A stretch of DNA of 61,356 nt from Chloroflexota bacterium (GCA_043754535.1 JAYUUN010000010.1:1-61356); one strand, 5' to 3'; shown: positions 1-17,206, counted from the first letter of the stretch. Translations and numbers: made by a program. The notes: generated by a model from the letters alone, not told the origin.

Positions 1-1713
1 GTGATCAAGCAGACGAAGGCCCAGTTTGTTTACTCTGCTGATAGTGTCTCCAATCAGGGCTACTTGCTCGGCTACTTCGAGATCGTGGCGAATGACCACA
101 CTCTGGCTGATCGGTTCCCTGGCCTGCTAGAGCAGGTGACACCAGCGGATGTGCAGCGCGTGGCTGGGCAATACCTGAAGAAGAGTAACCGCACTGTCGG
201 CCACTTTACCCCCCGCCCGATGACCGACGAAGATCACCGCAAGATGGCAGTGGCCCAGGCAGCGGCAGCGGGGGGTCACGGTCACTTCTACACCCCGATC
301 AGCGACCTGGTAGCGACCGATAGGCTGGCTTTCTACCATCAACCCACAGCCGCGAGCTTGTTCCTGGCTAAAGACCCTCAGGAACTTGTGTTCCTAAACC
401 CACAGGCGGCAACCGCGCAGGAACAGGCGTTGGCGCGATTGGATGATGACAAGATCGTGCGTAAGGTGTTGCCAAATGGCATTACCGCTTTGATCTACAC
501 CAAGAAGGACAACCCTTCGGTTATCGTGCGGGCGGCTCTGCGTGCTGGCTCAATCTACGAAACCCCAGAGCAGGCTGGGCTGGCGGGCTTCACCTCTTCA
601 ATCCTGCGGCGGGGGACGGAGCAATATGGCTTTAGCGAACTGAACGAACTAACCGACGAGCTAGCCTTTAGTGTGGAGAGCGGTAGTAGCCGTCACCTTG
701 CTAGTGTCGGGGGCCGCAGTCTGCGTGAAGACTTCGGCACACTGGTAGAGGTGATAGGCGAGATGTTGCAGCACGCTACCTTTCCTGAGCAGGAGATCGA
801 GAAGGTACGAGGCAACGTACTGACTGGCCTTAAGGAGCGCGAGAACGACACTCGGGGCGTGGCTGAGCGCAAGTTCCACGAACTAGCCTACCCTGAGGGC
901 CACCCCTACCACTACTCTAGCTCTGGCTATATCGAGACAATCGAGAAGATTAGTCGCGAAGATATGGTGGCCTTCTACAAGAGATACTATCGGCCCGACA
1001 CCACTACCATCGTAATCGTCGGTGACATTGAGGCTGCTGACGCACTAGCGAAGTTGCAGGCCGAGCTTGGTGGCTGGCAGCCAGAGCCTGGCGCAGGCGA
1101 GGCACCCATCATTGAAGTGGCTGCGGTAAGTAAGCCAGAGGGTATCAGGCGGGAGGTGAGCGAGGTGCCGGGCAAGACACAGGCCGACATCGTTCTCGGC
1201 TTTCCTAGCTTGCCACGCAAGCACCCCGACTACGAGGCGTTGATGATGGGCAACTACATCCTCGGCCAGCTTGGTCTCTACGGTCGCCTCGGTCAGAATG
1301 TACGTGACAAGCAGGGACTGGCCTACTACTGCTACAGCAGTCTTGAGGGCGGCTTCGGCAATGGCTCGTGGGCCATCCGCGCAGGTGTAAACCCAGCCAA
1401 CATCGACAAGGCAATTGCGGGTATGTTGGAGGAGACGAACCGCATCCTAACCGATGCTCCTATTGAAGCAGAGGAGTTGGAGGAGACCAAGAGCTTCCTC
1501 ACTGGTACCCTACCCCTGCGGCTGGAGACCAGCAGTGGGATCGCAGCCCAATTGATGGACATCGAACTCTATGAACTGGGTAGCGACTACGTACAACGGC
1601 ACCTTCAGAAGGTACAGGCTATGACCGCTGAGGAGATCATGGCCGCCTTGCACAAGCACATCAATCTCGACAGCTATGTACTCGCCATTGCTGGTACGCT
1701 AGCCAACGAATAG
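1..1713 (+). CDS. M16 (pitrilysin-family) zinc peptidase, 5'-truncated; end of first half fused to a non-catalytic second half
   Basis: M16-type motifs VRKVLPNG, GSIYETPEQAGLA, FYKRYYRPD, GRLGQNVRDKQGLAY; no HxxEH in the visible half; ORF runs off the window start. Confidence 0.85.
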   Translation: MIKQTKAQFVYSADSVSNQGYLLGYFEIVANDHTLADRFPGLLEQVTPADVQRVAGQYLKKSNRTVGHFTPRPMTDEDHRKMAVAQAAAAGGHGHFYTPISDLVATDRLAFYHQPTAASLFLAKDPQELVFLNPQAATAQEQALARLDDDKIVRKVLPNGITALIYTKKDNPSVIVRAALRAGSIYETPEQAGLAGFTSSILRRGTEQYGFSELNELTDELAFSVESGSSRHLASVGGRSLREDFGTLVEVIGEMLQHATFPEQEIEKVRGNVLTGLKERENDTRGVAERKFHELAYPEGHPYHYSSSGYIETIEKISREDMVAFYKRYYRPDTTTIVIVGDIEAADALAKLQAELGGWQPEPGAGEAPIIEVAAVSKPEGIRREVSEVPGKTQADIVLGFPSLPRKHPDYEALMMGNYILGQLGLYGRLGQNVRDKQGLAYYCYSSLEGGFGNGSWAIRAGVNPANIDKAIAGMLEETNRILTDAPIEAEELEETKSFLTGTLPLRLETSSGIAAQLMDIELYELGSDYVQRHLQKVQAMTAEEIMAALHKHINLDSYVLAIAGTLANE

Positions 1714-1726
1714 CAAACAGCGCAGC

Positions 1727-1763
1727 AAGAGGGTGGATCAGATGAACGCTGATCCACCCTCTT
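1727..1763. terminator. Intrinsic terminator-like hairpin after the M16 gene
   Basis: Perfect 15-bp inverted repeat AAGAGGGTGGATCAG / CTGATCCACCCTCTT with a 7-nt loop. Confidence 0.75.
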
Positions 1764-1767
1764 TGCG

Positions 1768-1787
1768 TTAGGAACTTATGCTCCTAA
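1768..1787. repeat. 20-bp imperfect palindrome, copy 1 (candidate parS-like site)
   Basis: TTAGGAACTTATGCTCCTAA; near-identical copies at 1815-1834 and 7639-7658. Confidence 0.6.
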
Positions 1788-1814
1788 ACTACATAGCACT
1801 GCGCCAACCAACCT

Positions 1815-1834
1815 TTAGGAACTCATGCTCCTAA
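1815..1834. repeat. 20-bp imperfect palindrome, copy 2 (candidate parS-like site)
   Basis: TTAGGAACTCATGCTCCTAA. Confidence 0.6.
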
Positions 1835-1945
1835 ACCCTGTGCAGCGCACCCACAGCGGCGATCCGCCCTCTTACTAGCACACCAACAGACTCACACGCC
1901 GAGAGCGCATCCACGTGCGCCCCCAATCAGCATATTCGTCTGTGC

Positions 1946-2341
1946 TTACAGTTCCGTCTGCACTGGCCGCAGCTTCCCCTGCTTGTAGGCCGTCTGCAGC
2001 TCTAGCAGGTCGCGTAGCTTGTCGCGCAGGCGGCGGCTGAACTCCTCCTCATCATACAGTCGCTCCAGCAGCAGCTTGCCGAAGTCAGGGTCGTTCAGCA
2101 GTTCCAACATCATCTCGCCACACACGCGCAGGTAGGTTGAGCGATTGACCTTCAATCCATCGTATGCCCGCGTCTTGCTGTTCAGCTTCGCTAGCTGCTC
2201 ATCCAGTGGGATTAGCTGATAGGGGTAGTAGTAAACTGCCACCTGCTTTAGCCGTCCGGCCCCGTTGCGCGCCCGTTGCTCGGCCATATCGTCCTCCACC
2301 TCGCGGCGGCTGCGCGGTGGGTTGTCAAAGTCGAAATCCAT
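1946..2341 (-). CDS. Small hypothetical protein, possible ribbon-helix-helix DNA-binding protein
   Basis: 131-aa ORF with RBS (GAGGAGAG); strand-helix-helix pattern QVAVYY-PYQLIPLDEQLAKL-NRSTYLRVCGEMMLE. Confidence 0.55.
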   Translation of the reverse strand: MDFDFDNPPRSRREVEDDMAEQRARNGAGRLKQVAVYYYPYQLIPLDEQLAKLNSKTRAYDGLKVNRSTYLRVCGEMMLELLNDPDFGKLLLERLYDEEEFSRRLRDKLRDLLELQTAYKQGKLRPVQTEL

Positions 2342-2397
2342 CTCACTCTCCTCTTGCTAACCCCACCTTTGCTCAGCGTGGGGCTAATGGCTAGCGG

Positions 2398-3264
2398 CTA
2401 CGCCCGACCTTTGTACTCCTGCATCATCGTACCCACCACGTGTTCTACGATGTCAGTGTCAACTTTCCGCTTGTTGAAGCGCGGAGCTACGTCGAAGCAG
2501 AGTGAGCAGATGTTGACGATGCTGCGCGGCACCCCTTCTGACTGCTTAAAAATCATCGCTATCGCGTCGTCGGTGAACAGCTCTATACCTGGCGGCAAGC
2601 CTGCTACCTTCAGCCGGTGGTAGATCAAGTCCTTCACCTGCGCCGCGCTCATAAATGGCTCAAGGTTGTTGGTGAAGCGTACTCGACTGCCAAGATTACG
2701 CTTCTTCGCCACCTTCTCTTGCAGCTCAAGCTGGCCGAACATCACAATTTGCAAGATGCGGTGGTCGTCAAGCGAGTAGTTGAGAAAGATACGTAGTCGC
2801 TCTAGCGCGTCGTAGGTCAGGCACTGAGCCTCGTCAACCAGCAGCAGCGGCACCTTCCCCTCACGGGCTGTCTTTTGCAGAAAGATGATGAACTCGTTAG
2901 ACAGCTCGCTGCGGGTGCTGGCGACAGGCCGCTGACCAAAGGCACGCAGCATCTCGCGGGTAAACTCCGCGTCGGTCGGCTGCGAAGGGTCAAGTACCTC
3001 ACCTACCAGGAAGCTGCTGAACAGGTCGTTGCCCACGATCCGCTTACGCAGCAGCCCCAGTAGGCTACTCTTGCCCAGCCCAATGTCACCGTAGATGATC
3101 GCCAAACCGCGCTTCATCGCGATGTGGCTAGTCAGCATCTCGTAAGCCTCTTTGTACTGGTAGCCCAGATAGAAGAAACGTGCGCTATCCTCTGGGTTGA
3201 AAGGGTCTTCCTTCAGCGCGGGGTGGAAGTAGGCCATCGCCAACTTCTGGTACTGACTAACCAT
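2398..3264 (-). CDS. ExeA/GspA/MshM-like AAA ATPase, stand-alone
   Basis: LKEDPF..ARFFY N-terminus, Walker A GDIGLGKS, Walker B LLLVDEAQ, IVMFGQLEL, SEGVPRSIVNIC. Confidence 0.85.
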   Translation of the reverse strand: MVSQYQKLAMAYFHPALKEDPFNPEDSARFFYLGYQYKEAYEMLTSHIAMKRGLAIIYGDIGLGKSSLLGLLRKRIVGNDLFSSFLVGEVLDPSQPTDAEFTREMLRAFGQRPVASTRSELSNEFIIFLQKTAREGKVPLLLVDEAQCLTYDALERLRIFLNYSLDDHRILQIVMFGQLELQEKVAKKRNLGSRVRFTNNLEPFMSAAQVKDLIYHRLKVAGLPPGIELFTDDAIAMIFKQSEGVPRSIVNICSLCFDVAPRFNKRKVDTDIVEHVVGTMMQEYKGRA

Positions 3265-3294
3265 TGTTGTCTCCTGTCGCAGCCATCATTCTAC

Positions 3295-3338
3295 CTTACA
3301 GCAATGTCAATCTTACAGCAATGTCAATCTTACAGCAA
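3295..3338. repeat. 17-bp tandem direct repeat (about 2.6 copies)
   Basis: CTTACAGCAATGTCAAT x2 followed by CTTACAGCAA. Confidence 0.9.
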
Positions 3339-3355
3339 AACCCCAATGCTGTCAA
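3327..3355 (-). promoter_or_regulatory. Sigma70-type promoter for the AAA ATPase/RHH pair
   Basis: Minus strand TTGACA (3355-3350), 17 bp, TAAGAT (3332-3327). Confidence 0.55.
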
Positions 3356-3433
3356 TAGGCTGAAGCCGTGATGTTGCCCGTGCTAACGTACTAATATGCC
3401 AGCATCATGGGGTGCAGTCAGAGTAGCACCGAT

Positions 3434-3461
3434 TTGACAGCATTTTAGTTTCGGGTATAAT
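3434..3461 (+). promoter_or_regulatory. Sigma70-type promoter for the HTH-parA-parB operon
   Basis: TTGACA, 16 bp, TATAAT (both hexamers consensus). Confidence 0.75.
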
Positions 3462-3539
3462 AAGCGATAGGCAACCTTAGAATAGCTTCTTCGGCACAGA
3501 CTACTGCGCCAGCACCAAAATGTGAGGTCGGTTTAAGCA

Positions 3540-3893
3540 ATGGCAAGTTCTATCGGATACAGCAGCGGTGAGGCTTTGGGGGTGTTGGCCGACCGTGGCT
3601 ACATCACCACCCCCCGTGTGATCCGCAACATTGAGGACAAGCTAGCTCTGCCCATCCGCCGTGATGCCCAGCATCAGCGCGTCTACACCGAGGTGGACAT
3701 CGAGCAACTAGCCAACGTGATTGCCCTCCAAGAGGCTGGCCTCAGCCTGCCTACCATCTACCGCGTGTTGATCGAGCGCGATATTGACGTGCTGACCTTC
3801 CAGAGCCAACGGCTGGATCACGCCATGAGCATCCTCCAGAGCTTGAAGCAGACCGCCAGCAACGCCCAGGCCGTTGGCGCAGAGAGGCAGTAG
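3540..3893 (+). CDS. MerR-type HTH protein (RacA/BldC-like)
   Basis: PRVIRNIEDKLALPIRRDAQHQRVYTEVDIEQL..QEAGLSLPTI fits the MerR winged-HTH pattern; short helical C-terminus. Confidence 0.7.
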   Translation: MASSIGYSSGEALGVLADRGYITTPRVIRNIEDKLALPIRRDAQHQRVYTEVDIEQLANVIALQEAGLSLPTIYRVLIERDIDVLTFQSQRLDHAMSILQSLKQTASNAQAVGAERQ

Positions 3894-3898
3894 CGTCT

Positions 3899-4810
3899 AT
3901 GTATCTCTCTATGAACACCCGCCAGCGCGTGGAGGAAGCCAGCCACAAGGCTGCCCCTCAGCGCAAGCAACAGAAAGCCGCGCCGAAGGGGCTTGCTACC
4001 GAACCCAAGATGCAACCGCTTGAGGATGAGCAGGCCGACCACTGCCGTGTGATCGCCATCGCTAACCAGAAGGGTGGCGTAGGTAAGACCACTACCACCG
4101 TCAACCTCGGTGCCGAACTTGCCGTCCTCGGTCGCCGCGTCCTCGTCATCGACCTCGATCCCCAGGCCGCCGCCACCTACTCGCTCGGTGCCGACCCAGA
4201 GACGTTGGACAACACGATCTACAGCGTGCTGGTCAAGAAAAGCGTCAAGCTAAACGACATCTTGCTGCCCACCGCCATCGAGGGGCTGCTACTCGCCCCT
4301 GCCAACCTCGACCTTGCCGCCGCCGAGATGGAGTTGATGCAGAACTACACCCGCGAACGCATCCTCCGCGATGCAATCGCCCCCTTCCGCAACCAGTTCG
4401 ACTACATCCTGATCGACTGCCCGCCCACCCTGACCCTGCTCACGATCAACGCCTTCGTCGCCAGCACCGAGGTACTGATCCCCTTGCAGACCCATCTGCT
4501 CAGTATCCGTGGGGTCAGCAAGCTGTTGGAGACGATCAAGGAAGTGACCCCGCTCAACCCCGGTCTGCGCGTTGCCGGTATCCTGCCCACCATGTACGAT
4601 GGCCGCAGCAACCTCAACCGCGAGATACTTGCCACCATCAGCGAAGTCTACCCTGGTCGCGTCTTCAAGAGCGTGATCCGCTACGGCGTGGCCGCTGCCG
4701 AAGCCCCAGGCCAGGGCGTGCCAGTACGCCTCTACGCCCGCAGTTCGCCCGTCGCCCAGTGCTACGAGAGCCTTGCGAAGGAGGTTGTCGCTGATGAGTA
4801 CACCCAGTAA
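3899..4810 (+). CDS. parA: ParA/Soj-family partition ATPase
   Basis: Deviant Walker A NQKGGVGKTTT, IDLDPQ, DYILIDCPP; start may be ATG 3911. Confidence 0.95.
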   Translation: MYLSMNTRQRVEEASHKAAPQRKQQKAAPKGLATEPKMQPLEDEQADHCRVIAIANQKGGVGKTTTTVNLGAELAVLGRRVLVIDLDPQAAATYSLGADPETLDNTIYSVLVKKSVKLNDILLPTAIEGLLLAPANLDLAAAEMELMQNYTRERILRDAIAPFRNQFDYILIDCPPTLTLLTINAFVASTEVLIPLQTHLLSIRGVSKLLETIKEVTPLNPGLRVAGILPTMYDGRSNLNREILATISEVYPGRVFKSVIRYGVAAAEAPGQGVPVRLYARSSPVAQCYESLAKEVVADEYTQ

Positions 4811-5774
4811 GAAGCGCAGCCTTGTTCCCAACAATATCGTGCAACGGCTGGTAGACGCTACCCCAGAGGAGGGTTCGCAGCCACTAGCCAACGCCCGCCT
4901 GCTGGACATGAAGCTGATCGACAACGACCCCAACCAGCCACGCAAAGTCTTTGAGGTTGAGCCATTCCGTGAACTGGTCAACTCCCTCGCCCTGCGCGGT
5001 CTTTTGCAACCGATTACCGTGCAGCGGCAAAAGAGCGGTCGCTATCGGGTGATCACCGGCGAACGTCGCTGGCGGGCCGCTGTCGAACTTGGCTGGATGC
5101 AAATCCCCGCCCTCGTCGTCGATACCAACAAAGACGAGATGGACATCAAGCTGGATCGCATCGAGGAGAACCGCCAGCGCACTGGCCTCAAAGACTACGA
5201 AATGGCCCTCGCTCTGCAAGAGATCAAGCGCGACCTGCGTGAGGTCAACCCCGACGTGAACAGCAACGAGCTTGACGACATGGTGGGTGAGAAGCTGACC
5301 ATCAGCGGGCGCACAGTGCGTAACTATCTAGCCATGCTCAAGCTACCCGACGAGGTGCGTGCCGAACTGGGCCAGGACTTCAGCGAACTGCGCGCTCGCG
5401 GCCTCAGCCTGCTCAAGAACCAGCCCGACCTCATGTTTGACCTGGTGCAGGCCGTCAATCGCCACAACCTCAGCGGCAACCAGACCGTGCAGGCCGCCCG
5501 CTTGCTCGACCGCGACGCGACCCTCACTGTCACCGAAGCGGTAGCTCGCGTCCGCAAGGGCGAGAGCGTGGAGAACTCAGTCACCCCGAAGGTCAAGAGT
5601 GCCAGGCGAGCTAGTACCCGCTTCCGTCAGTTCGCCACGGACCTCAACAACATAGGCCGCGCTCTTGAAGGCGGCCAGGTAATCCCCACCAGTGCCGAGG
5701 AACGCGACGACCTCCGCCGCCTGCTCATCCCTATCGTCGAGTTCTACCAGCGGTTGGAGAAGGAGGGCAAGTGA
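4794..5774 (+). CDS. parB: ParB/Spo0J-family partition protein
   Basis: NQPRKVF, GLLQPITV, ITGERRWRA CTP-binding motif, EENRQR, central HTH; RBS AAGGAGG before ATG 4794; overlaps the parA end. Confidence 0.92.
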   Translation: MSTPSKKRSLVPNNIVQRLVDATPEEGSQPLANARLLDMKLIDNDPNQPRKVFEVEPFRELVNSLALRGLLQPITVQRQKSGRYRVITGERRWRAAVELGWMQIPALVVDTNKDEMDIKLDRIEENRQRTGLKDYEMALALQEIKRDLREVNPDVNSNELDDMVGEKLTISGRTVRNYLAMLKLPDEVRAELGQDFSELRARGLSLLKNQPDLMFDLVQAVNRHNLSGNQTVQAARLLDRDATLTVTEAVARVRKGESVENSVTPKVKSARRASTRFRQFATDLNNIGRALEGGQVIPTSAEERDDLRRLLIPIVEFYQRLEKEGK

Positions 5775-6256
5775 TGGCCGAGGCAGAACGCAAGGTCAAG
5801 CCTAAAAGGTGGAGCAAAGCTGTGGTCAAGCTGCTGGACGGCAGCAACCGCTTGCTCTACAAGCTAACTGGCGGTAAGCTTGGCAACAGCATTGGTGGGA
5901 TGCCCGTCCTGATGCTCACTACTATTGGTCGCAGGTCGGGTGCGACCCACACGCACGCCCTCATCTTCCTGCGCGACGGCCAGGATTACGTAGTAATCGC
6001 CTCTAACGGCGGTAGCACCAGGCACCCAGGCTGGTACTTCAACGTCCAGGACAGACCCCACGTGGAGATCGAGTATAAGGGCAAGAAGGAGTCTCGCCAT
6101 GCGCACATCGCTAGCCTGGACGAGCGCACCCGCCTCTGGACTCGCGTCCTCAAGATGTGGAGCGGCTACGCAAGCTACGAGGCCGCCACCCTCAACATCC
6201 GCGAAATCCCGCTCGTCATCCTTGCCCCAGAGGAGGTAACTAGCAGTGGCAACTAG
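5774..6256 (+). CDS. Deazaflavin (F420)-dependent nitroreductase-family (DDN) oxidoreductase
   Basis: LMLTTIGRRSG, VIASNGG...HPGWYFN, REIPLVIL. Confidence 0.88.
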   Translation: MAEAERKVKPKRWSKAVVKLLDGSNRLLYKLTGGKLGNSIGGMPVLMLTTIGRRSGATHTHALIFLRDGQDYVVIASNGGSTRHPGWYFNVQDRPHVEIEYKGKKESRHAHIASLDERTRLWTRVLKMWSGYASYEAATLNIREIPLVILAPEEVTSSGN

Positions 6257-6707
6257 CCAGACGCAACCGAAACCCGTCAATCGGCTGCTAGGCAAGCTGG
6301 TGGACAGCATCCATCGGCTCGTCTGGCGAGTTAGCGGCGGCAGCGTGGGCAGCAAGCTGGGCAAGTACCCGATCCTGCTACTCACCACCACTGGGCGCAA
6401 GTCGGGCCAGCCCCGCACCCACACGCTTGCCTACTTCCGCGACAGCGACCGCCTGCTAGTAATCGCCTCCAATGGCGGTCAGCCCCAGCAGCCCGGCTGG
6501 TACCTCAACCTGCTAGCCAACCCCCAGGTGACGGTAGAAATGCAGGGTGGCAAACGCACAATGCTTGCCCATACTGCCGATGTAGCAGCACGCGCCCGCC
6601 TCTGGCCCCAGATCGTCGCCACCGCGCCACAGTACGCGGGCTACCAGGCCGCCACCGCTGGCATCCGTCACATCCCGATCATCATCCTTGTAGCGGAGGA
6701 GAGCTGA
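6246..6707 (+). CDS. Deazaflavin (F420)-dependent nitroreductase-family (DDN) oxidoreductase, paralog
   Basis: LLLTTTGRKSGQPR, VIASNGG...PGWYLNLLANP, RHIPIIIL. Confidence 0.88.
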   Translation: MATSQTQPKPVNRLLGKLVDSIHRLVWRVSGGSVGSKLGKYPILLLTTTGRKSGQPRTHTLAYFRDSDRLLVIASNGGQPQQPGWYLNLLANPQVTVEMQGGKRTMLAHTADVAARARLWPQIVATAPQYAGYQAATAGIRHIPIIILVAEES

Positions 6708-7213
6708 TGAAACTGGTGCTGCCTACAGCCGAATACAAGGCCAGCCTGCTAGCCGCCGCCGCTGAACACGAGGCTGCTGGTGAAACCCTGGACTACACCA
6801 TGCTGCCCACCTTCGATGACTTCGATGCGGGGCTACTTCGCCTGCAAGACCATGCTGCTGGTCGCAACCTTGAGCCAGGCTGGGTGGCCGACACCACCTA
6901 CTGGCTAGTAGACGACGGCGAGTACATTGGGCGCATCTCTGTACGCCATCAGTTGAATGATAGACTACGGCAGGTCGGCGGCCACATTGGCTACAACATC
7001 CGCCCCAGCAAGCGCAGGCAAGGCTATGGCGGCCACATCCTGCGCCTCGTCCTGCCAGAGGCCAAGCAGCTAGGCATCAACCCCACGCTAGTCACTTGCA
7101 ACGACGACAACATCGCCTCGTGGAAGATAATCGAGGCCAACGGCGGCAAGCTAGAGAACAAGATAGAGCTAGACGGTAGGCTAATCCGCCACTACTGGGT
7201 GGAGACCGCATGA
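6707..7213 (+). CDS. GNAT-family N-acetyltransferase
   Basis: GGHIGYNIRPSKRRQGYG, TCNDDNIASWKIIEANGG. Confidence 0.85.
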   Translation: MKLVLPTAEYKASLLAAAAEHEAAGETLDYTMLPTFDDFDAGLLRLQDHAAGRNLEPGWVADTTYWLVDDGEYIGRISVRHQLNDRLRQVGGHIGYNIRPSKRRQGYGGHILRLVLPEAKQLGINPTLVTCNDDNIASWKIIEANGGKLENKIELDGRLIRHYWVETA

Positions 7214-7377
7214 GCGACCGACCAGCAGCCGACCAGGTGGAGGCCATGCCACCGGGAGGCCGCTGAGAGGGCGCAGGCGGGACGTAGAGGCGTTAGCATG
7301 GGGAGTGGAACAAACCCCACACACCCCACATCCATCACCACATACATGAGGGGGGCAGGTAATGACCTGATGCAAGG

Positions 7378-7418
7378 CAAAAAGAAACGAGAGTACAGGG
7401 GCCATCCGTACTCTCGTC
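7378..7418 (-). terminator. Intrinsic terminator (minus strand)
   Basis: Stem ACGAGAGTAC/GTACTCTCGT followed on the minus strand by TTCTTTTT. Confidence 0.7.
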
Positions 7419-7550
7419 TAGGCTGATTAAACTGTCGAAGCCACTATCCCAGGCTATGAGAGGGCAGAGGATAAGTGGACTTGCTTACCTTTACGATATT
7501 GCTACCGGCAAGGTGGAGGCACCCGTTTGCCTTTCAGAACCTCACTTATG
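7378..7550 (-). ncRNA. Candidate ~170-nt structured non-coding RNA upstream of, and opposite in direction to, the putative initiator gene
   Basis: Minus-strand promoter (7556-7584), several hairpins, U-tailed terminator at about 7378-7418, no long ORF. Confidence 0.45.
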
Positions 7551-7555
7551 TCTAT

Positions 7556-7584
7556 ATGATACAGCAGGTGGGCGTGTTTGTCAA
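7556..7584 (-). promoter_or_regulatory. Sigma70-type promoter of the candidate ncRNA
   Basis: Minus strand TTGACA (7584-7579), 17 bp, TATCAT (7561-7556). Confidence 0.6.
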
Positions 7585-7638
7585 GTACCCTGCCGGGGCC
7601 AACTTTGCATAATGTGCGGATTCACCGCCTTTTTCGGC

Positions 7639-7658
7639 TTAGGAACTCAAGCTCCTAA
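7639..7658. repeat. 20-bp imperfect palindrome, copy 3 (candidate parS-like site)
   Basis: TTAGGAACTCAAGCTCCTAA. Confidence 0.6.
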
Positions 7659-7721
7659 GCGACAAGTGGGCAGAAACGACAGGTTTCCTGCTACAAAAGC
7701 TGGATAACCTGGCACAAAGTC

Positions 7722-7750
7722 TTGACGGCGAACAGGAGTTCTGCTATAAT
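7722..7750 (+). promoter_or_regulatory. Promoter of the putative initiator with a LexA-type box (GAAC-N4-GTTC) in the spacer
   Basis: TTGACG, 17 bp, TGC-TATAAT; CGAACAGGAGTTCT at 7729-7742. Confidence 0.65.
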
Positions 7751-7803
7751 GCGAATCAGCAGCACACTTGAACGTTTGCAAGGCAGAAAAAGCGAGGCAG
7801 AAT

Positions 7804-9552
7804 ATGGCTGACCCTAACCTGAACCAACCCGACGCAGCCCACGCCTGGGGCGAACTGCCCCTCAGCCTCGTGCGCGAGTGGACCCCCCTGCTCAAGCCAA
7901 CGGGCAGTGGCCTGCTACTCACCATCCATGCCTGGGAGGACACCAATCCTCGCTCCCCCTTCTACGGCTGGATGCACGCCTCCCAGGAACGGCTAGCCGC
8001 CTACTGCGACACTGGCCGCACCACTATCATCCGCTACCGCGACCTGCTCAAGCTCTGCGGCCTAATCGAGGAGCGACAGGTCAGTGACCGCCGCAGCCGC
8101 ATGAAGCTACACCAGAACGTCTACCGCGTCAATCGCGCCCCTGTGCTACCCAGCCACGGCCTGCTAGAGTATCTCCTATTTGACGCTGACGAGTGGACAC
8201 GCAAGCACACCGCCTGGCTGCTTACCACCTACCAACCGCTGGTCGAGGAGAGCGAGCTAGGCCGCCTGCTAGCCGCCATGCGCCGCAGCTACGAGACTCA
8301 GCTAACCAGCAGTGGGACGCTGGAGGTCGTCAGCGGCAAGCGGCTCAGCGAGGCGCACAGCTTCGCCGCCCGCTTGCTCGGCCAGCAACTCGGTCAGCAA
8401 GCCACCCTGCCGGTCGCTATCTGGCAGGCAGCCGCTCCCCTGCAAGGGGTGGCCCCTGCTGCCGACAACACCGCCCTCGCTAGCCATCCCCAGCCGACCA
8501 TTGTTTCAGCAGTGGACAGTGCTACTTTCGTAGCCGCTGGCTATGCCCATGCCAGCCACATCAGTGTGCCACCAGTGAACAATGCCGTCCCTTCCTACCG
8601 CCCCACCGCCAGCAGCGATGTGCCACCAGGAGTCAGTGGCCCCGGCAGTGCTGTTTCACCAGGAGTCAGTAATAACGTTAACGTTGATTCAGTCTTTAAC
8701 GTAAAAGATCATAATAACGTTAACGTTGCAAGTGACCACACCAACCTGCTAGCAATCGCCACCAGCGGCGCACAACAAATCAGCGACGAACACAGCCTCA
8801 ACTGGCACCTGGTCTGTGCCACCCGCCTCGGCGTGCCACTCTACCAGCAACTCGTCAGCAGCACCCGCAAGGCACTGGATGCGGGCAAGGTCAAGCGTGG
8901 TGGAGCCTACTTCACGAAGGCAGCCCTCGCTGCTGCCAGCCAACGCGGCCTCGCCCTTGAGTCTGCTGCTAGCAAGAGTCCTGGCAATGGCAATTCACAA
9001 ACTGACCCGGCTGGGGTATTGCAAAATGCCCCACAGTCGTGGTATGATACAAATCACAGGGCGACTCATCCCCCGCCAGCGAGCAGCGATGTATCAGCAG
9101 TGAACAATGCCAGCAGCGGGTTTGTGTCCAACTTCAGCGGTTACCAGGACAGCGTACCAGCCACACACAGCACGGTAGCAAGCAGCAATGTGCCACAAGT
9201 GAACAATGCTATACAGAGCGGCCCACACCTGCTCCAACCCAGCAATGTGCCACAAGTGAACAATGCTATTGACACCCTGCCCGGCCTCGACGAGACTAGC
9301 AGCGCAACGGCACGGCAACTGTGGTGCGCCGTACAGTACGAGATGCAAGGCCGCCTGAGCAATACCGCCTGGCAAAGCTGGCTGTCGCAGACCCGCGTCG
9401 TTGGTAGAGAAGACGGCACCCTGCTGATTGGCGGCCCTAGTAGCAACATGGCACGAGCGATGGTGGATCGCTATGGCGAAGAAGTAGTCACCGTCGCCCA
9501 TGAGATGGCGGGTCGCAAGCTCCCGATCCGCTTCGTCGCCCGCCTGACCTGA
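7804..9552 (+). CDS. Putative replication initiator: N-terminal winged HTH, central helical domain, C-terminal DnaA domain-I-like region
   Basis: SQERLAAYCDTGRTTIIRYRDLLKLCGLIE (wHTH); KVKRGGAYFT; QLWCAVQYEMQGRLSNTAWQSWLSQT..LLIGGPS (DnaA_N-like); lies near parAB. Confidence 0.7.
   Translation: MADPNLNQPDAAHAWGELPLSLVREWTPLLKPTGSGLLLTIHAWEDTNPRSPFYGWMHASQERLAAYCDTGRTTIIRYRDLLKLCGLIEERQVSDRRSRMKLHQNVYRVNRAPVLPSHGLLEYLLFDADEWTRKHTAWLLTTYQPLVEESELGRLLAAMRRSYETQLTSSGTLEVVSGKRLSEAHSFAARLLGQQLGQQATLPVAIWQAAAPLQGVAPAADNTALASHPQPTIVSAVDSATFVAAGYAHASHISVPPVNNAVPSYRPTASSDVPPGVSGPGSAVSPGVSNNVNVDSVFNVKDHNNVNVASDHTNLLAIATSGAQQISDEHSLNWHLVCATRLGVPLYQQLVSSTRKALDAGKVKRGGAYFTKAALAAASQRGLALESAASKSPGNGNSQTDPAGVLQNAPQSWYDTNHRATHPPPASSDVSAVNNASSGFVSNFSGYQDSVPATHSTVASSNVPQVNNAIQSGPHLLQPSNVPQVNNAIDTLPGLDETSSATARQLWCAVQYEMQGRLSNTAWQSWLSQTRVVGREDGTLLIGGPSSNMARAMVDRYGEEVVTVAHEMAGRKLPIRFVARLT
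8502..9266 (+). repeat. Seven degenerate 21-bp iteron-like repeats inside the initiator gene
   Basis: Starts at 8502, 8565, 8619, 8652, 9090, 9189, 9246; e.g. TGTGCCACAAGTGAACAATGC, TGTATCAGCAGTGAACAATGC, TGTTTCACCAGGAGTCAGTAA. Confidence 0.65.
8670..8728. other. AT-rich segment with two AACGTTAACGTT palindromes (candidate DNA-unwinding element)
   Basis: TAATAACGTTAACGTTG occurs twice, directly after repeat 4, in otherwise GC-rich DNA. Confidence 0.5.
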
Positions 9553-9659
9553 AGTGGTAGCACCCGGCCTCTCCCCTGCGAGAGGATGGGTTGGGCAGGA
9601 AGTGAGCAGCGCGACGGCCATAGCCTAGCCGCCAAAGGTAGCACTGTGCCACTAAGATT

Positions 9660-9941
9660 CTAAAATAGCCTGGGGAAGAAGCGGTAGAGCAAGCCGCCCA
9701 ACAGCAGCAGCAGCGTAGCAGCAAGCAGGCTGGCGAAATCCAGCCCCGGCGTACCAACATAGGGAGCGGCAAAGAACGGCTGGCACGGCGCGGCCACCAG
9801 TCCGCCCGCGGCCAGCAGCCAGCCAACCAGCGGGCTAGTGGGGTCAGACCCCACCGCCCGCAACACAAAGCGGCAGACCAGCAGCGCAAGCAGCACGGTC
9901 AACAACAAGCGCAGCGGCGCGATGCGGAAGGTACGTATCAT
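9660..9941 (-). CDS. Small membrane protein, YggT-like
   Basis: LLVCRFVLRAVGSDPTSPLVGWL..PFF..LDFASLLA pattern; ATG 9941 lies 7 nt after TGTGCTATAAT. Confidence 0.6.
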   Translation of the reverse strand: MIRTFRIAPLRLLLTVLLALLVCRFVLRAVGSDPTSPLVGWLLAAGGLVAAPCQPFFAAPYVGTPGLDFASLLAATLLLLLGGLLYRFFPRLF

Positions 9942-10283
9942 TGCCGCATTATAGCACATCTGCCACCCCGGTCGGGCCATGACCCGGGCAGCAGCCAACA
10001 AGCAGCAATACAGCCCCCGTAGTAGGCCATGACTACGCGGCTGGTGAGGTAGAACGCTGGAAGGGCAGCAGGAGAGGCTATGAGCATGACACTTGAAGAC
10101 CGCGTGCGGGTCGCCGCCATACGCGACGGCTGGCAACTAGATCGGGTTAGCTACCACAAGAGCAGGCTACCGTTGCGCCCAGACAGCGTAGCCGAAGAAG
10201 GTATCCTCCTGCTCCTGCTAGCCCTCAACCGCGAGCTAACCGCCCGCGAGAGCAGGCAGCTAGTGGCACTGCGCCTGGTGCGC

Positions 10284-10541
10284 TTACCGCCGCCGCTGAC
10301 CGCCGCGCAGGAACGCCCCTACTACAATGCCAACGAACAGCCAGAAGGCGATGAACAGCACGCTGCTCAAGCCGTTGGCGATCATCAGCACCAGCAGCAC
10401 CGCCGCTACGATCAGCGCGCTGCCGACTGCCGCCGGGCGCACATACGCCCCGCGCAATGCCGCCATCTCCAACAGATAGCGGCCCAGGTAGAGGCCGCCG
10501 CCAAAGATGATCGCCGCCAGGATAATAGTTAGAATGTCCAT
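10284..10541 (-). CDS. Small hypothetical membrane protein (about 3 TM)
   Basis: Hydrophobic 85-aa ORF with RBS AAGGAGGG. Confidence 0.65.
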   Translation of the reverse strand: MDILTIILAAIIFGGGLYLGRYLLEMAALRGAYVRPAAVGSALIVAAVLLVLMIANGLSSVLFIAFWLFVGIVVGAFLRGGQRRR

Positions 10542-10676
10542 AGTTTCTCAATCCCTCCTTCTGGTTGCAGGTCTACCCTTGCGCTCGATAGCAGCCGCTT
10601 GCCGCTCAGTCGTCCCCAATCGCGCAGCAACCTGGCACAGGCCGGTGCGCTCGGCTAGCCACTAGCACAGCCAACC

Positions 10677-11570
10677 CTACTCCGAGCCGCCGTCCCCGCC
10701 GCCGCCCTCCTTGCTGATCGCCGCCAGGAAGGGCGCAATTTGCTCCTGCACCCCTGGGTCGATTTGCTGCGCCCGCGCTAGTATCGGCTCCGCCTCGTCA
10801 TAGCGGCCCAGCAGAGCCAGAGCCATACCCTCGCCTGCCATCGCCTGCGCGTTCTCTGGGTCTAGCCCTGTCGCCCGCGTGAAATCGGCCAACGCCCGCT
10901 CGTAATCGCCCTGCGCCCCGTAAGTGCGCGCCCGGTTGTAGTAAGCATCCGCGTACTGCGGGTCGAGCGCAACCGCCTGGTTGTAGTCGGCCAACGCCTC
11001 GGCTAGCTTGTTCGCCAACAGGTAGCAAGACCCCCGGTTGTTGAACGAGTCCGCGTCAGTCATCCCCAATTCGATAGCCCGCGTAAAGTCGCCCGCCGCC
11101 TGCTCAAAGTGGCCCAACTCCGCGTTACATAGCGCACGACCGTAATACGGCTGCCCCTCGCCTGGTGAGAGCGAGATGTAGGTGTCGAAGTCGGCCACCG
11201 CCTGCTGCAACTGGCCCGCCTGCATATAAGCCACCCCCCGGTTGTTGTAGGCCTTGACGAAGGTGGGGTCGAGCAAGAGAGCCTGGTTGTAATCCGCAAT
11301 TGCCAGGTTGAACTTCTCTTGCTCCGCATAGCAGATGCCCCGGTAGAGGTAAGCCTCGGTCGCCTCTGGGGTGATGTTCAGCACCGCAGTGAAGTCGGCA
11401 ATCGCCGCTGCCAGGTCGCCCACCTCGTAGTAAACAGCCCCGCGCTCAAACAGCTTCTCCGCATCCCCCGGCTGCTCGGCCAGGGCAGCATCCAGCGCGC
11501 CCAGTTGTAGAGCCAGCCGCTCCTGCTCCTCCGCCTCAAGCGGTACTGCATAGTGCTGCAAGCGATTCAT
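10677..11570 (-). CDS. Tetratricopeptide-repeat protein
   Basis: Repeated AYxNRG...A..DYNQA..LDP units. Confidence 0.9.
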   Translation of the reverse strand: MNRLQHYAVPLEAEEQERLALQLGALDAALAEQPGDAEKLFERGAVYYEVGDLAAAIADFTAVLNITPEATEAYLYRGICYAEQEKFNLAIADYNQALLLDPTFVKAYNNRGVAYMQAGQLQQAVADFDTYISLSPGEGQPYYGRALCNAELGHFEQAAGDFTRAIELGMTDADSFNNRGSCYLLANKLAEALADYNQAVALDPQYADAYYNRARTYGAQGDYERALADFTRATGLDPENAQAMAGEGMALALLGRYDEAEPILARAQQIDPGVQEQIAPFLAAISKEGGGGDGGSE

Positions 11571-16516: not shown

Positions 16517-17206
16517 TTACCGCTCTACCACGATCATGTCTGCCACCTGCACACAGTGGCGGGCAAAGTAGCCAGTGTTCGCCTCCAAAGCATAGCGGTA
16601 GTCGCTCTTAGGGCCATGTTGGGTCTGGTCATCGAAGGGAGCCATCTCCTGAATGTCAATGATCGTGCCGTTTTGGTCAATGAAGGCGATTGCCAGCGGC
16701 AAGGCCGTGTTCTCCATCCAGAAGGTGTCGCTAGTCGGCTGGCCGAAGTCGAACAGCATCCCATGATCGTCGGCCATTGCGGTGCGCCCCATCAGCCCAA
16801 TCTGCTGCTCCTGCCCGCTAAGGGCGAGTTCCACCGTCATCGTCAGGCTGCGTTCGCCCTGCGAGCCACGCAGGAAGCGCAGGGTTGCTAGCTTCAATCC
16901 CTCCTGTGGCGCAACCAGCACAGGCGTGGCGGTCGAGCCAGCGATGGGTACGACGGTTGCCTGCAACGGCTTGACCACGCATTGGAAGCTCGCCACTGTG
17001 GGTCGGCTTACTACAGTCGCTGGCTGCCTGGCCGTCGTAGTCGTTGGTTGGTTGGCTAGCGCAGTCGCGGTCGCTTGGCTGCTGGTTGCGGTCAGCATGG
17101 CGGGCGTTGGTGGCGCAGGGCTGGGGCTGGCTGGGGCCGGGCTGTCGCAGCCCACCCCAGTTAGCAGCAGGCCGACAGTCAGCAAGGCCACCAGTTTGTT
17201 TCGCAA
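16517..17206 (-). CDS. DUF192-domain lipoprotein
   Basis: Lipobox-like LTGVGC; GLMGR..GMLFDF..FWMENTALPLAIAFID, YALEANTG; TTG start inferred from RBS. Confidence 0.8.
   Translation of the reverse strand: MRNKLVALLTVGLLLTGVGCDSPAPASPSPAPPTPAMLTATSSQATATALANQPTTTTARQPATVVSRPTVASFQCVVKPLQATVVPIAGSTATPVLVAPQEGLKLATLRFLRGSQGERSLTMTVELALSGQEQQIGLMGRTAMADDHGMLFDFGQPTSDTFWMENTALPLAIAFIDQNGTIIDIQEMAPFDDQTQHGPKSDYRYALEANTGYFARHCVQVADMIVVER

Follow-up and report, generated by a model that had tools for sequence, protein, structure and literature searches.

The window, as we call the stretch of DNA analysed here, is the whole of contig C10 (61,356 nucleotides; GCA_043754535.1, JAYUUN010000010.1:1-61356) of assembly G000 of a Chloroflexota bacterium, which comprises 3,872,131 bases in 132 contigs; coordinates are those of C10 unless another contig is named. 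Its first part holds a parAB locus, and our subject is a short near-palindrome recurring around that locus, which an earlier note on this DNA had proposed as a novel parS, the centromere of the encoded ParB. Genes were named by Pfam and NCBIfam profile searches. A MerR-like gene, parA and a paralogous parB are followed, after two reductase genes and an acetyltransferase gene, by a 594-aa open reading frame (ORF); an AAA_22 ATPase gene and a 131-aa ORF run divergently from them (Table 1). The remainder of the contig carries the nuo operon and other housekeeping genes, and C10 is therefore chromosome-like rather than a small plasmid. PADLOC made no defence-system assignment.

Table 1. Features of the parAB locus, with the parS-like sites; relatives are coded by genome (G), family (f) and genus (g)
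Feature	Position	Strand	Remarks
M16 peptidase ORF	1-1713	+	Protein conserved over residues 2-570 in G038
parS-like site, 2 of 5	378..397		TCAGGAACTTGTGTTCCTAA; perfect AGGAAC/GTTCCT arms; within the M16 peptidase ORF
parS-like site, 3 of 5	1768..1787		TTAGGAACTTATGCTCCTAA; between convergent genes, after a terminator-like hairpin (1727-1763)
parS-like site, 4 of 5	1815..1834		TTAGGAACTCATGCTCCTAA; 47 bp from site 1768
131-aa ORF	1946..2341	-	No family; 64-72% identity, adjoining the AAA ATPase gene in family f3
AAA_22 P-loop ATPase	2398..3264	-	Divergent from the par operon
Divergent promoter region	3265..3539		275 bp, between AAA_22 and MerR-like genes; DNA conserved across two families
MerR-family helix-turn-helix protein, 117 aa	3540..3893	+	MerR_1, E 3.7e-9; ends 5 nt before parA
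ParA ATPase	3899..4810	+	Deviant Walker A motif KGGVGKT
Paralogous ParB	4773..5774	+	ParB_N domain; likely start ATG at 4794
Two tandem F420H2-dependent quinone reductases and GNAT acetyltransferase	5771-7213		
Small-RNA candidate, about 170 nt	7381..7584	-	RNA from about 7549 to 7381; intrinsic terminator
parS-like site, 5 of 5	7639..7658		TTAGGAACTCAAGCTCCTAA; between divergent promoters (small-RNA candidate and 594-aa ORF)
Promoter-like TTGACG-N17-TATAAT of the 594-aa ORF	7722..7750	+	GAACAGGAGTTC at 7730-7741 in the 17-nt spacer
594-aa ORF	7768..9552	+	No family above threshold; likely ATG at 7804
Fifth genomic copy of the parS-like site	C108:25367		CTAGGAACATAAGCTCCTAA; 2.1 kb from the end of C108

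Copies and placement of the sites

All three copies reported earlier (1768, 1815 and 7639) match TTAGGAACTYAWGCTCCTAA with 0 mismatches. They are near-palindromes, as had been noticed, but their symmetry is not perfect: one position sets the arms TTAGGAAC and GCTCCTAA apart, and two of the three copies have an asymmetric centre of four bases. The count of three proved too low, since the total is five, with four copies in the window and a fifth on contig C108. A search of the window at up to three mismatches returned four places, that is, seven strand matches; in 100 dinucleotide-preserving shuffles of the window the mean was 0.01 and the maximum 1, and none of the 100 reached the observed seven. 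Across the whole assembly, the pattern is found at three places without a mismatch and at four with up to two, the addition being C108:25367; with up to three mismatches there are six, window 378 and C103:42925 joining the list. The match at C103:42925, with three mismatches and without palindromic arms, is probably due to chance. The exact core AGGAAC-N4-GYTCCT occurs at five places in the 3.87-Mb assembly, all at the parAB locus. Two metagenome contigs of the same species (ParB 99-100% identical) span the junction between C108 and C10, and place the five copies within 9.84 kb. Clustering at the cognate parAB and rarity elsewhere, by which a parS-type centromere is known as a functional class, thus hold for 5/5 copies. 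This is also the clustering that the earlier note had predicted for a genome-wide motif scan; no scatter over SOS promoters was seen.

Sites 1768 and 1815 do lie between convergent genes, the M16 peptidase ORF (plus strand, ending at 1713) and the 131-aa ORF (minus strand), as had been described. Site 7639 was correctly placed upstream of the 594-aa ORF, 129 nt 5′ of it, but the label of initiator given to that ORF is weakly supported. A placement between convergent genes, inside an unrelated ORF or, in relatives, inside parB is typical of parS and unusual for operators.

Relatives and the anatomy of the site

The ParB was searched for in 40 genomes of the order to which the window belongs. 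Strong orthologues, at 41-53% identity (E 1e-62 to 1e-90), are encoded by 5/5 genomes of family f1, the window's own included, and by 8/9 of family f3, and represent three genera besides that of the window; in the 26 genomes of family f2 the search returned just three matches, all weak (E about 1e-21), two of them from genomes flagged as unpublished. The orthologous loci share one gene order, with the 131-aa ORF and AAA_22 divergent from the MerR-like gene, parA, parB and, further on, the 594-aa ORF, and the module is single-copy and syntenic in 13/14 genomes of the two families. The AAA_22 ATPase is 66-76% identical in every orthologous locus long enough to show its gene and the core of ParA 69-78%; the 131-aa ORF was not found by tblastn in two g2 loci. 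In other genera the 594-aa gene directly follows parB, so the reductase and GNAT genes are an insertion that only the window's genus has.

Related palindromes, TAGGARC-ACGT-GYTCCTA, adjoin parB or lie inside it in the relatives. Ten of the 12 relative loci that we scanned contain them (the other two are 4,972 and 1,368 bases long), as do six of seven orthologous metagenome contigs; examples are CAGGAACACGTGTTCCTA (g2), TAGGAACWCGWGTTCCTA and TAGGAGCACGTGCTCCTA (g4) and TAGGAGCACGCGCGCCTA (g5). The sites are found past the AAA_22 operon, on its 3′ side, frequently in pairs 46-109 bp apart. The parB gene of g4 and g5 contains a site of its own, translated as LGA(S/R)AP within a loop whose sequence varies in the genomes without an internal site. 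Whole-genome scans of five relatives placed every exact match at the locus, and in the near-complete genome G032 three of the four matches at up to one mismatch fall within 9.7 kb around parB. The pairing of site and ParB thus appears to be conserved across at least four genera of two families. Among more distant ParB relatives, 58 loci (463,677 bases) held one match to the motif, with about three expected.

The anatomy of the site was drawn from 28 sites, or 56 half-sites. Their consensus of 18-20 bp is TTAGGARC-WYRW-GYTCCTAA, with half-site counts, towards the dyad, of T44, T47, A56, G56, G56, A53, R (30 A, 26 G), C56, W (39 A, 15 T) and Y (40 C, 13 T). When the relatives' sites, AGGARCAC/GTGYTCCT with the dyad at the slash, are aligned on canonical parS, TGTTNCAC/GTGNAACA, 8/16 positions are shared, among them a G at position 2 and the six bases CACGTG at the centre. 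The sole variable position of the arm, R, coincides with the N of canonical parS, and it is this variability that accounts for the asymmetry between GAAC and GCTC arms noticed earlier. That the motif differs from canonical parS stands: the 16-bp consensus TGTTNCACGTGAAACA has no match in the window at up to two mismatches. In the assembly, matches at that threshold occur only on contig C111, at seven places.

The canonical array on C111 is worth recording in its own right. Seven canonical parS, mostly TGTTCCACGTGGAACA, lie within 1.9 kb (C111:71127-73047), with spacings of about 40 bp among four of them, and C111 has no ParB_N match.

ParB and the competing readings of the sites

The near-palindromes are probably diverged parS-type loading sites, a private centromere, of the paralogous ParB encoded at 4773-5774. 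The earlier proposal of a centromere for this ParB is supported both by the clustering at the locus and by the related palindromes that accompany orthologous ParB proteins across genera. The protein itself scores 78.5 bits for ParB_N (PF02195), against a cut-off of 26.3. Its cytidine triphosphate (CTP)-binding motifs GERRWRA and ENRQR are invariant in 7/7 aligned orthologues, and it carries the GERRxRA arginine patch that marks the ParB/Spo0J family of CTP-dependent clamps. A basic N-terminal motif, K/R-x-x-V-P, is conserved among the orthologues as well.

The recognition helix is SGRTVRNYL. We mapped the helix-turn-helix (HTH) by hand, via an alignment to Noc, onto Caulobacter numbering (Jalal et al. 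2020, PMC7383237). According to the parts of that study consulted for the comparison, R173 is invariable in parS-specific variants (Jalal et al. 2020, PMC7383237). By this mapping, position 173 is a G, with R at 174 and 177, in all 14 aligned orthologues, so that the arginine taken as the mark of a parS-specific ParB is missing. A conserved, altered helix would thus match a conserved, altered site.

The assembly has 10 ParB_N matches. A canonical-looking ParB is encoded on contig C8, with the recognition helix KNRSTITNML and 31% identity to the window's ParB over the N-terminal domain only. Plasmid relatives of the window's ParB are distant, with at most 32% identity. Another paralogue, on contig C5 (C5:15846-16847), contains two identical 16-bp palindromes, GTATGTACGCACATAC, at 16580 and 16625 in the 3′ part of its gene; these may be a further private parS.

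We hypothesize that ParB dimers would recognise the AGGARC arms through the altered HTH, that CTP bound through the retained GERRWRA and ENRQR motifs would close the clamps, that the clamps would spread over the region of roughly 10 kb, and that the adjacent ParA ATPase would position the resulting ParB-DNA complex. We infer that ParB, rather than the MerR-like or the winged-helix neighbour, binds the sites, and we likewise suppose CTP-dependent spreading and a role in segregation. Because the arms differ from those of canonical parS, insulation from the canonical ParB/parS of the same genome would be expected.

Several observations weigh against the centromere proposal. Every orthologous locus encodes all five of the MerR-like protein, ParA, ParB, the AAA ATPase and the winged-helix protein of 594 aa; their joint presence therefore does not reveal which one binds the sites. 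HTH_ParB scores 20.7 bits, just under the Pfam cut-off of 22.6, with the HTH aligning to structures of Noc and ParB. With its arms intact, the site of the window's genus has a core decayed to CTYAWG, which makes the window's own sites less like parS. Bare match counts are not rare, for a reversed-pattern control in the five relatives gave 2-19 matches per strand at up to one mismatch; the signal therefore lies in the clustering and in the exact palindromes. A covariation of residue 178 (N/S) with arm position 5 (A/G) was considered and rejected, being broken by the metagenome contigs L071 and L072, and no column of the recognition helix separates the two classes of site, with A or G at arm position 5.

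The sites might instead be bound by the MerR-family protein, either marking a region through scattered palindromes in the manner of RacA or regulating the module, and we consider this unlikely. MerR-family proteins are dimers that bind palindromes, and RacA of Bacillus, a winged-helix protein resembling MerR, uses palindromes scattered over part of the chromosome to mark that part; here, the gene immediately precedes parA in all orthologous loci of sufficient length, and its product has a clear MerR_1 HTH. MerR-type regulators act within the promoter spacer, however, where 0/28 sites are found, and a site akin to parS suggests an HTH of the ParB type. The description of this protein as RacA-like found no support in the profile searches: it has the MerR_1 domain only, and among NCBIfam models no RacA-specific one matched, just HspR and ZntR weakly. 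A different plausible target for this regulator is offered by the divergent promoter region at 3265-3539, which has other motifs and lacks the TAGGARC site. It contains three 17-bp direct repeats (3290-3340), TGTCAATA motifs and shared ATGTTAGTAC motifs, with TTGACA-N16-TATAAT ahead of the MerR-like gene; its TGACA-N4-TGTCA-like and ATGTTAGTAC motifs are better suited to an autoregulator and are candidate operators of the module's regulator. Less likely still is that the 594-aa winged-helix protein uses the sites as operators, or as iteron-like elements, controlling its own expression or an origin. Site 7639 does precede the -35 element of the gene's promoter by about 65 bp, and the protein combines a confidently predicted winged-helix N-terminus (pLDDT 77) with a weak likeness to DnaD-like and Rep proteins. 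In other genera, though, no site is found within 260 nt upstream of the gene; the sites there fall within parB or on the far side of the AAA ATPase operon, at a distance of 3-9 kb. Distant homologues in other families sit in loci without ParAB (0/5), where no TAGGARC palindrome was conspicuous among the listed 16-mer near-palindromes, a listing made with no scan for the motif itself.

The caution that the core is close to a LexA box was well founded as to the resemblance, but the sites are hardly credible as SOS boxes and we reject that reading. The organism's SOS box is AGAAC-N4-GTTCT, located in promoters, and the core GAAC-N4-G(T/C)TC resembles both AGAACGGCAGTTCT in the spacer of the lexA promoter and AGAACATATGTGC ahead of recA; a perfect GAAC-N4-GTTC is even present in site 378 and in those of g2. 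Yet three of the four window sites have GCTC, the g4 and g5 sites have GAGC/GCTC or GCGC arms, and the invariant flanking TAGG/CCTA is no part of a LexA box. GAAC-N4-GTTC occurs at 34 places genome-wide, with AGG/CCT arms only at window 378. The sites are confined to one locus instead of being spread over SOS genes, none is in a promoter spacer, and the core is not kept in the orthologous sites. It is also quite improbable, if less so than SOS control, that the module is the relic of an integrated plasmid with repeats that no longer function. Its position among housekeeping genes such as the nuo operon would fit such a relic, as would G032, where GC skew does not change at the locus. Against it, the synteny of a single-copy module in 13/14 genomes of two families, the intact ORFs, the conserved non-coding DNA and the arms that are invariant over 28 sites argue for selection.

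The module as a whole and its known counterparts

Beyond ParB and its putative sites, the 594-aa protein has an N-terminal winged helix, a repetitive low-complexity middle and a C-terminus that is weakly DnaA_N-like. DnaA_N was a weak top match in four of seven orthologous C-termini, all below the cut-off. Foldseek related the N-terminal domain to generic winged-helix folds (best E 2.9e-3), among which primosomal DnaB and a plasmid Rep-DNA complex were listed; profile matches were weak, to HTH_36 and to a DnaD-like PHROG (E 5.8e-5). Atlas leads were to clusters with HTH_36, RP-C, DnaD_N and RepL, with RP-C in 25% of one cluster. No homologue of the N-terminal domain was found in 72,556 plasmid records. 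The protein is, then, weakly initiator-like. Its low-complexity middle is encoded in part by degenerate repeats of about 30 nt (window 8496-9269), which specify S-(D/N)-V-P-(P/Q)-V-N-N-A.

The promoter-like element of this ORF has the same layout as the lexA promoter of the genome (contig C28). A box of the GAACAGGAGTTC type is absent upstream of the 594-aa orthologues and was seen only in the window's genus, which suggests SOS control of the gene in that genus only.

An opposite-strand element, 7549-7381, is a candidate small RNA. Its promoter reads TTGACA-N17-TATCAT, with the -35 element at 7579-7584 and the -10 element at 7556-7561, and in 11/11 loci the DNA between parB and the 594-aa gene holds an opposite-strand promoter, TTGACA-N17-TATSAT, with an intrinsic terminator about 170-190 nt further on. 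Compensatory changes were seen in 5 of 43 predicted pairs among seven f3 sequences. Rfam gave no match for the candidate or elsewhere in window 1-11000, and its only significant match in four relative loci was a tRNA. A 74-aa ORF that overlaps the candidate is not conserved, even within the genus.

The genes and elements taken together (AAA_22, MerR-like protein, ParA, ParB, a candidate small RNA from the opposite strand, and a winged-helix protein whose tail resembles DnaA domain I, flanked by putative private parS sites) lead us to a tentative and rather doubtful hypothesis: the module would be the maintenance cassette of an unrecognised secondary replicon of Chloroflexia, or of a chromosome into which such a replicon merged, leaving it with two centromeres. 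Jointly with this, and just as tentatively, it would be a repABC-like solution that evolved outside Alphaproteobacteria with a new family of initiators. For Ktedonobacteria, a different class in this phylum, the portions of PMC13289182 available to us describe chromid-like replicons in which no initiator is recognisable. In G032 the module is carried by contig C2 (2.6 Mb), whose ends do not overlap, and dnaA and canonical parS by contig C3. GC skew over 400 kb around the module shows no sign change at the locus (means -0.0015 to the left and +0.0046 to the right), the nearest changes being 60-80 kb away; in the control region on C3, which holds dnaA and canonical parS, the sign flips within about 20 kb. 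Coming from one genome with noisy profiles, this is weak evidence against an active origin at the module. On C3 the skew (62-462 kb, L142-L161) passes from positive to negative across dnaA and canonical parS, opposite to the usual polarity of an origin.

We found no description of the motif or module in the literature on parS and ParB of Chloroflexi, on non-canonical parS and secondary chromosomes, on Chloroflexi chromids, or on repABC outside Alphaproteobacteria. Genomes with several ParB proteins must prevent cross-talk between centromeres, and the locus is a natural comparative example from a phylum in which segregation has hardly been studied, an orthogroup of ParB in which the core of parS was kept and the arms and recognition helix were rewritten. 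It provides a directly testable pair of protein and site for the divergence of ParB specificity, and possibly an orthogonal ParB/parS pair for DNA labelling. Should the module prove to be a cassette for replication and partition, it would show by what means Chloroflexia maintain secondary replicons.

With the LexA box, GAAC-N4-GTTC, the sites share the four-base cores of the half-sites and their spacing; they differ in that arms outside the core, and not the core, are conserved, and in lying outside promoters at a single locus. The likeness to canonical parS of ParB/Spo0J goes further: a short palindrome is present in a few copies clustered around parAB, its partner has ParB_N with GERRxRA, and the CACGTG centre (in relatives), the G at position 2 and the degenerate position 5 recur. 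A copy inside parB in some genomes has its counterpart in Bacillus, where spo0J contains a parS. On the other hand, the arms are AGGAR instead of TGTTN, conservation extends to 18-20 bp, the ParB has G in place of R173, and the genome keeps a separate array of canonical parS.

The repABC system, as set out in excerpts of PMC9040568, consists of parA, parB, an opposite-strand small RNA gene in the spacer between parB and rep, and then the initiator gene; its parS copies take variable places, including inside ORFs and kilobases away, and the same excerpts describe it as exclusive to Alphaproteobacteria (PMC9040568). The order of parA, parB, opposite-strand RNA candidate and initiator-like gene is alike in 11/11 loci, the sites are scattered in a similar way, within ORFs and kilobases off, and one of them lies beside the RNA candidate. 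In contrast, the 594-aa protein has no RP-C/RepC match above any Pfam or NCBIfam threshold, the repABC parS consensus as given there, GTTNNNNGCNNNNAAC, is not followed by the sites, the MerR-like and AAA_22 genes are extra, and the RNA candidate measures about 170-190 nt.

Variants of parS specific to a replicon or a paralogue are, by the passages we could draw on, already established in other phyla (PMC5450999). Burkholderiales have replicon-specific 'Bsr' variants, in which ParB paralogues each have their own 16-bp palindromic centromere; these share an overall composition and a central CG and, according to the same passages, diverged to avoid cross-reaction (PMC5450999). The sequences and the phylum differ from ours, and replicon assignment and binding were measured in Burkholderia, whereas here the system is known from sequence alone. 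The arrangement is otherwise alike, for several ParB paralogues are present in our genome too, among its 10 ParB_N matches, and the one on C5 has a GTATGTACGCACATAC pair of its own.

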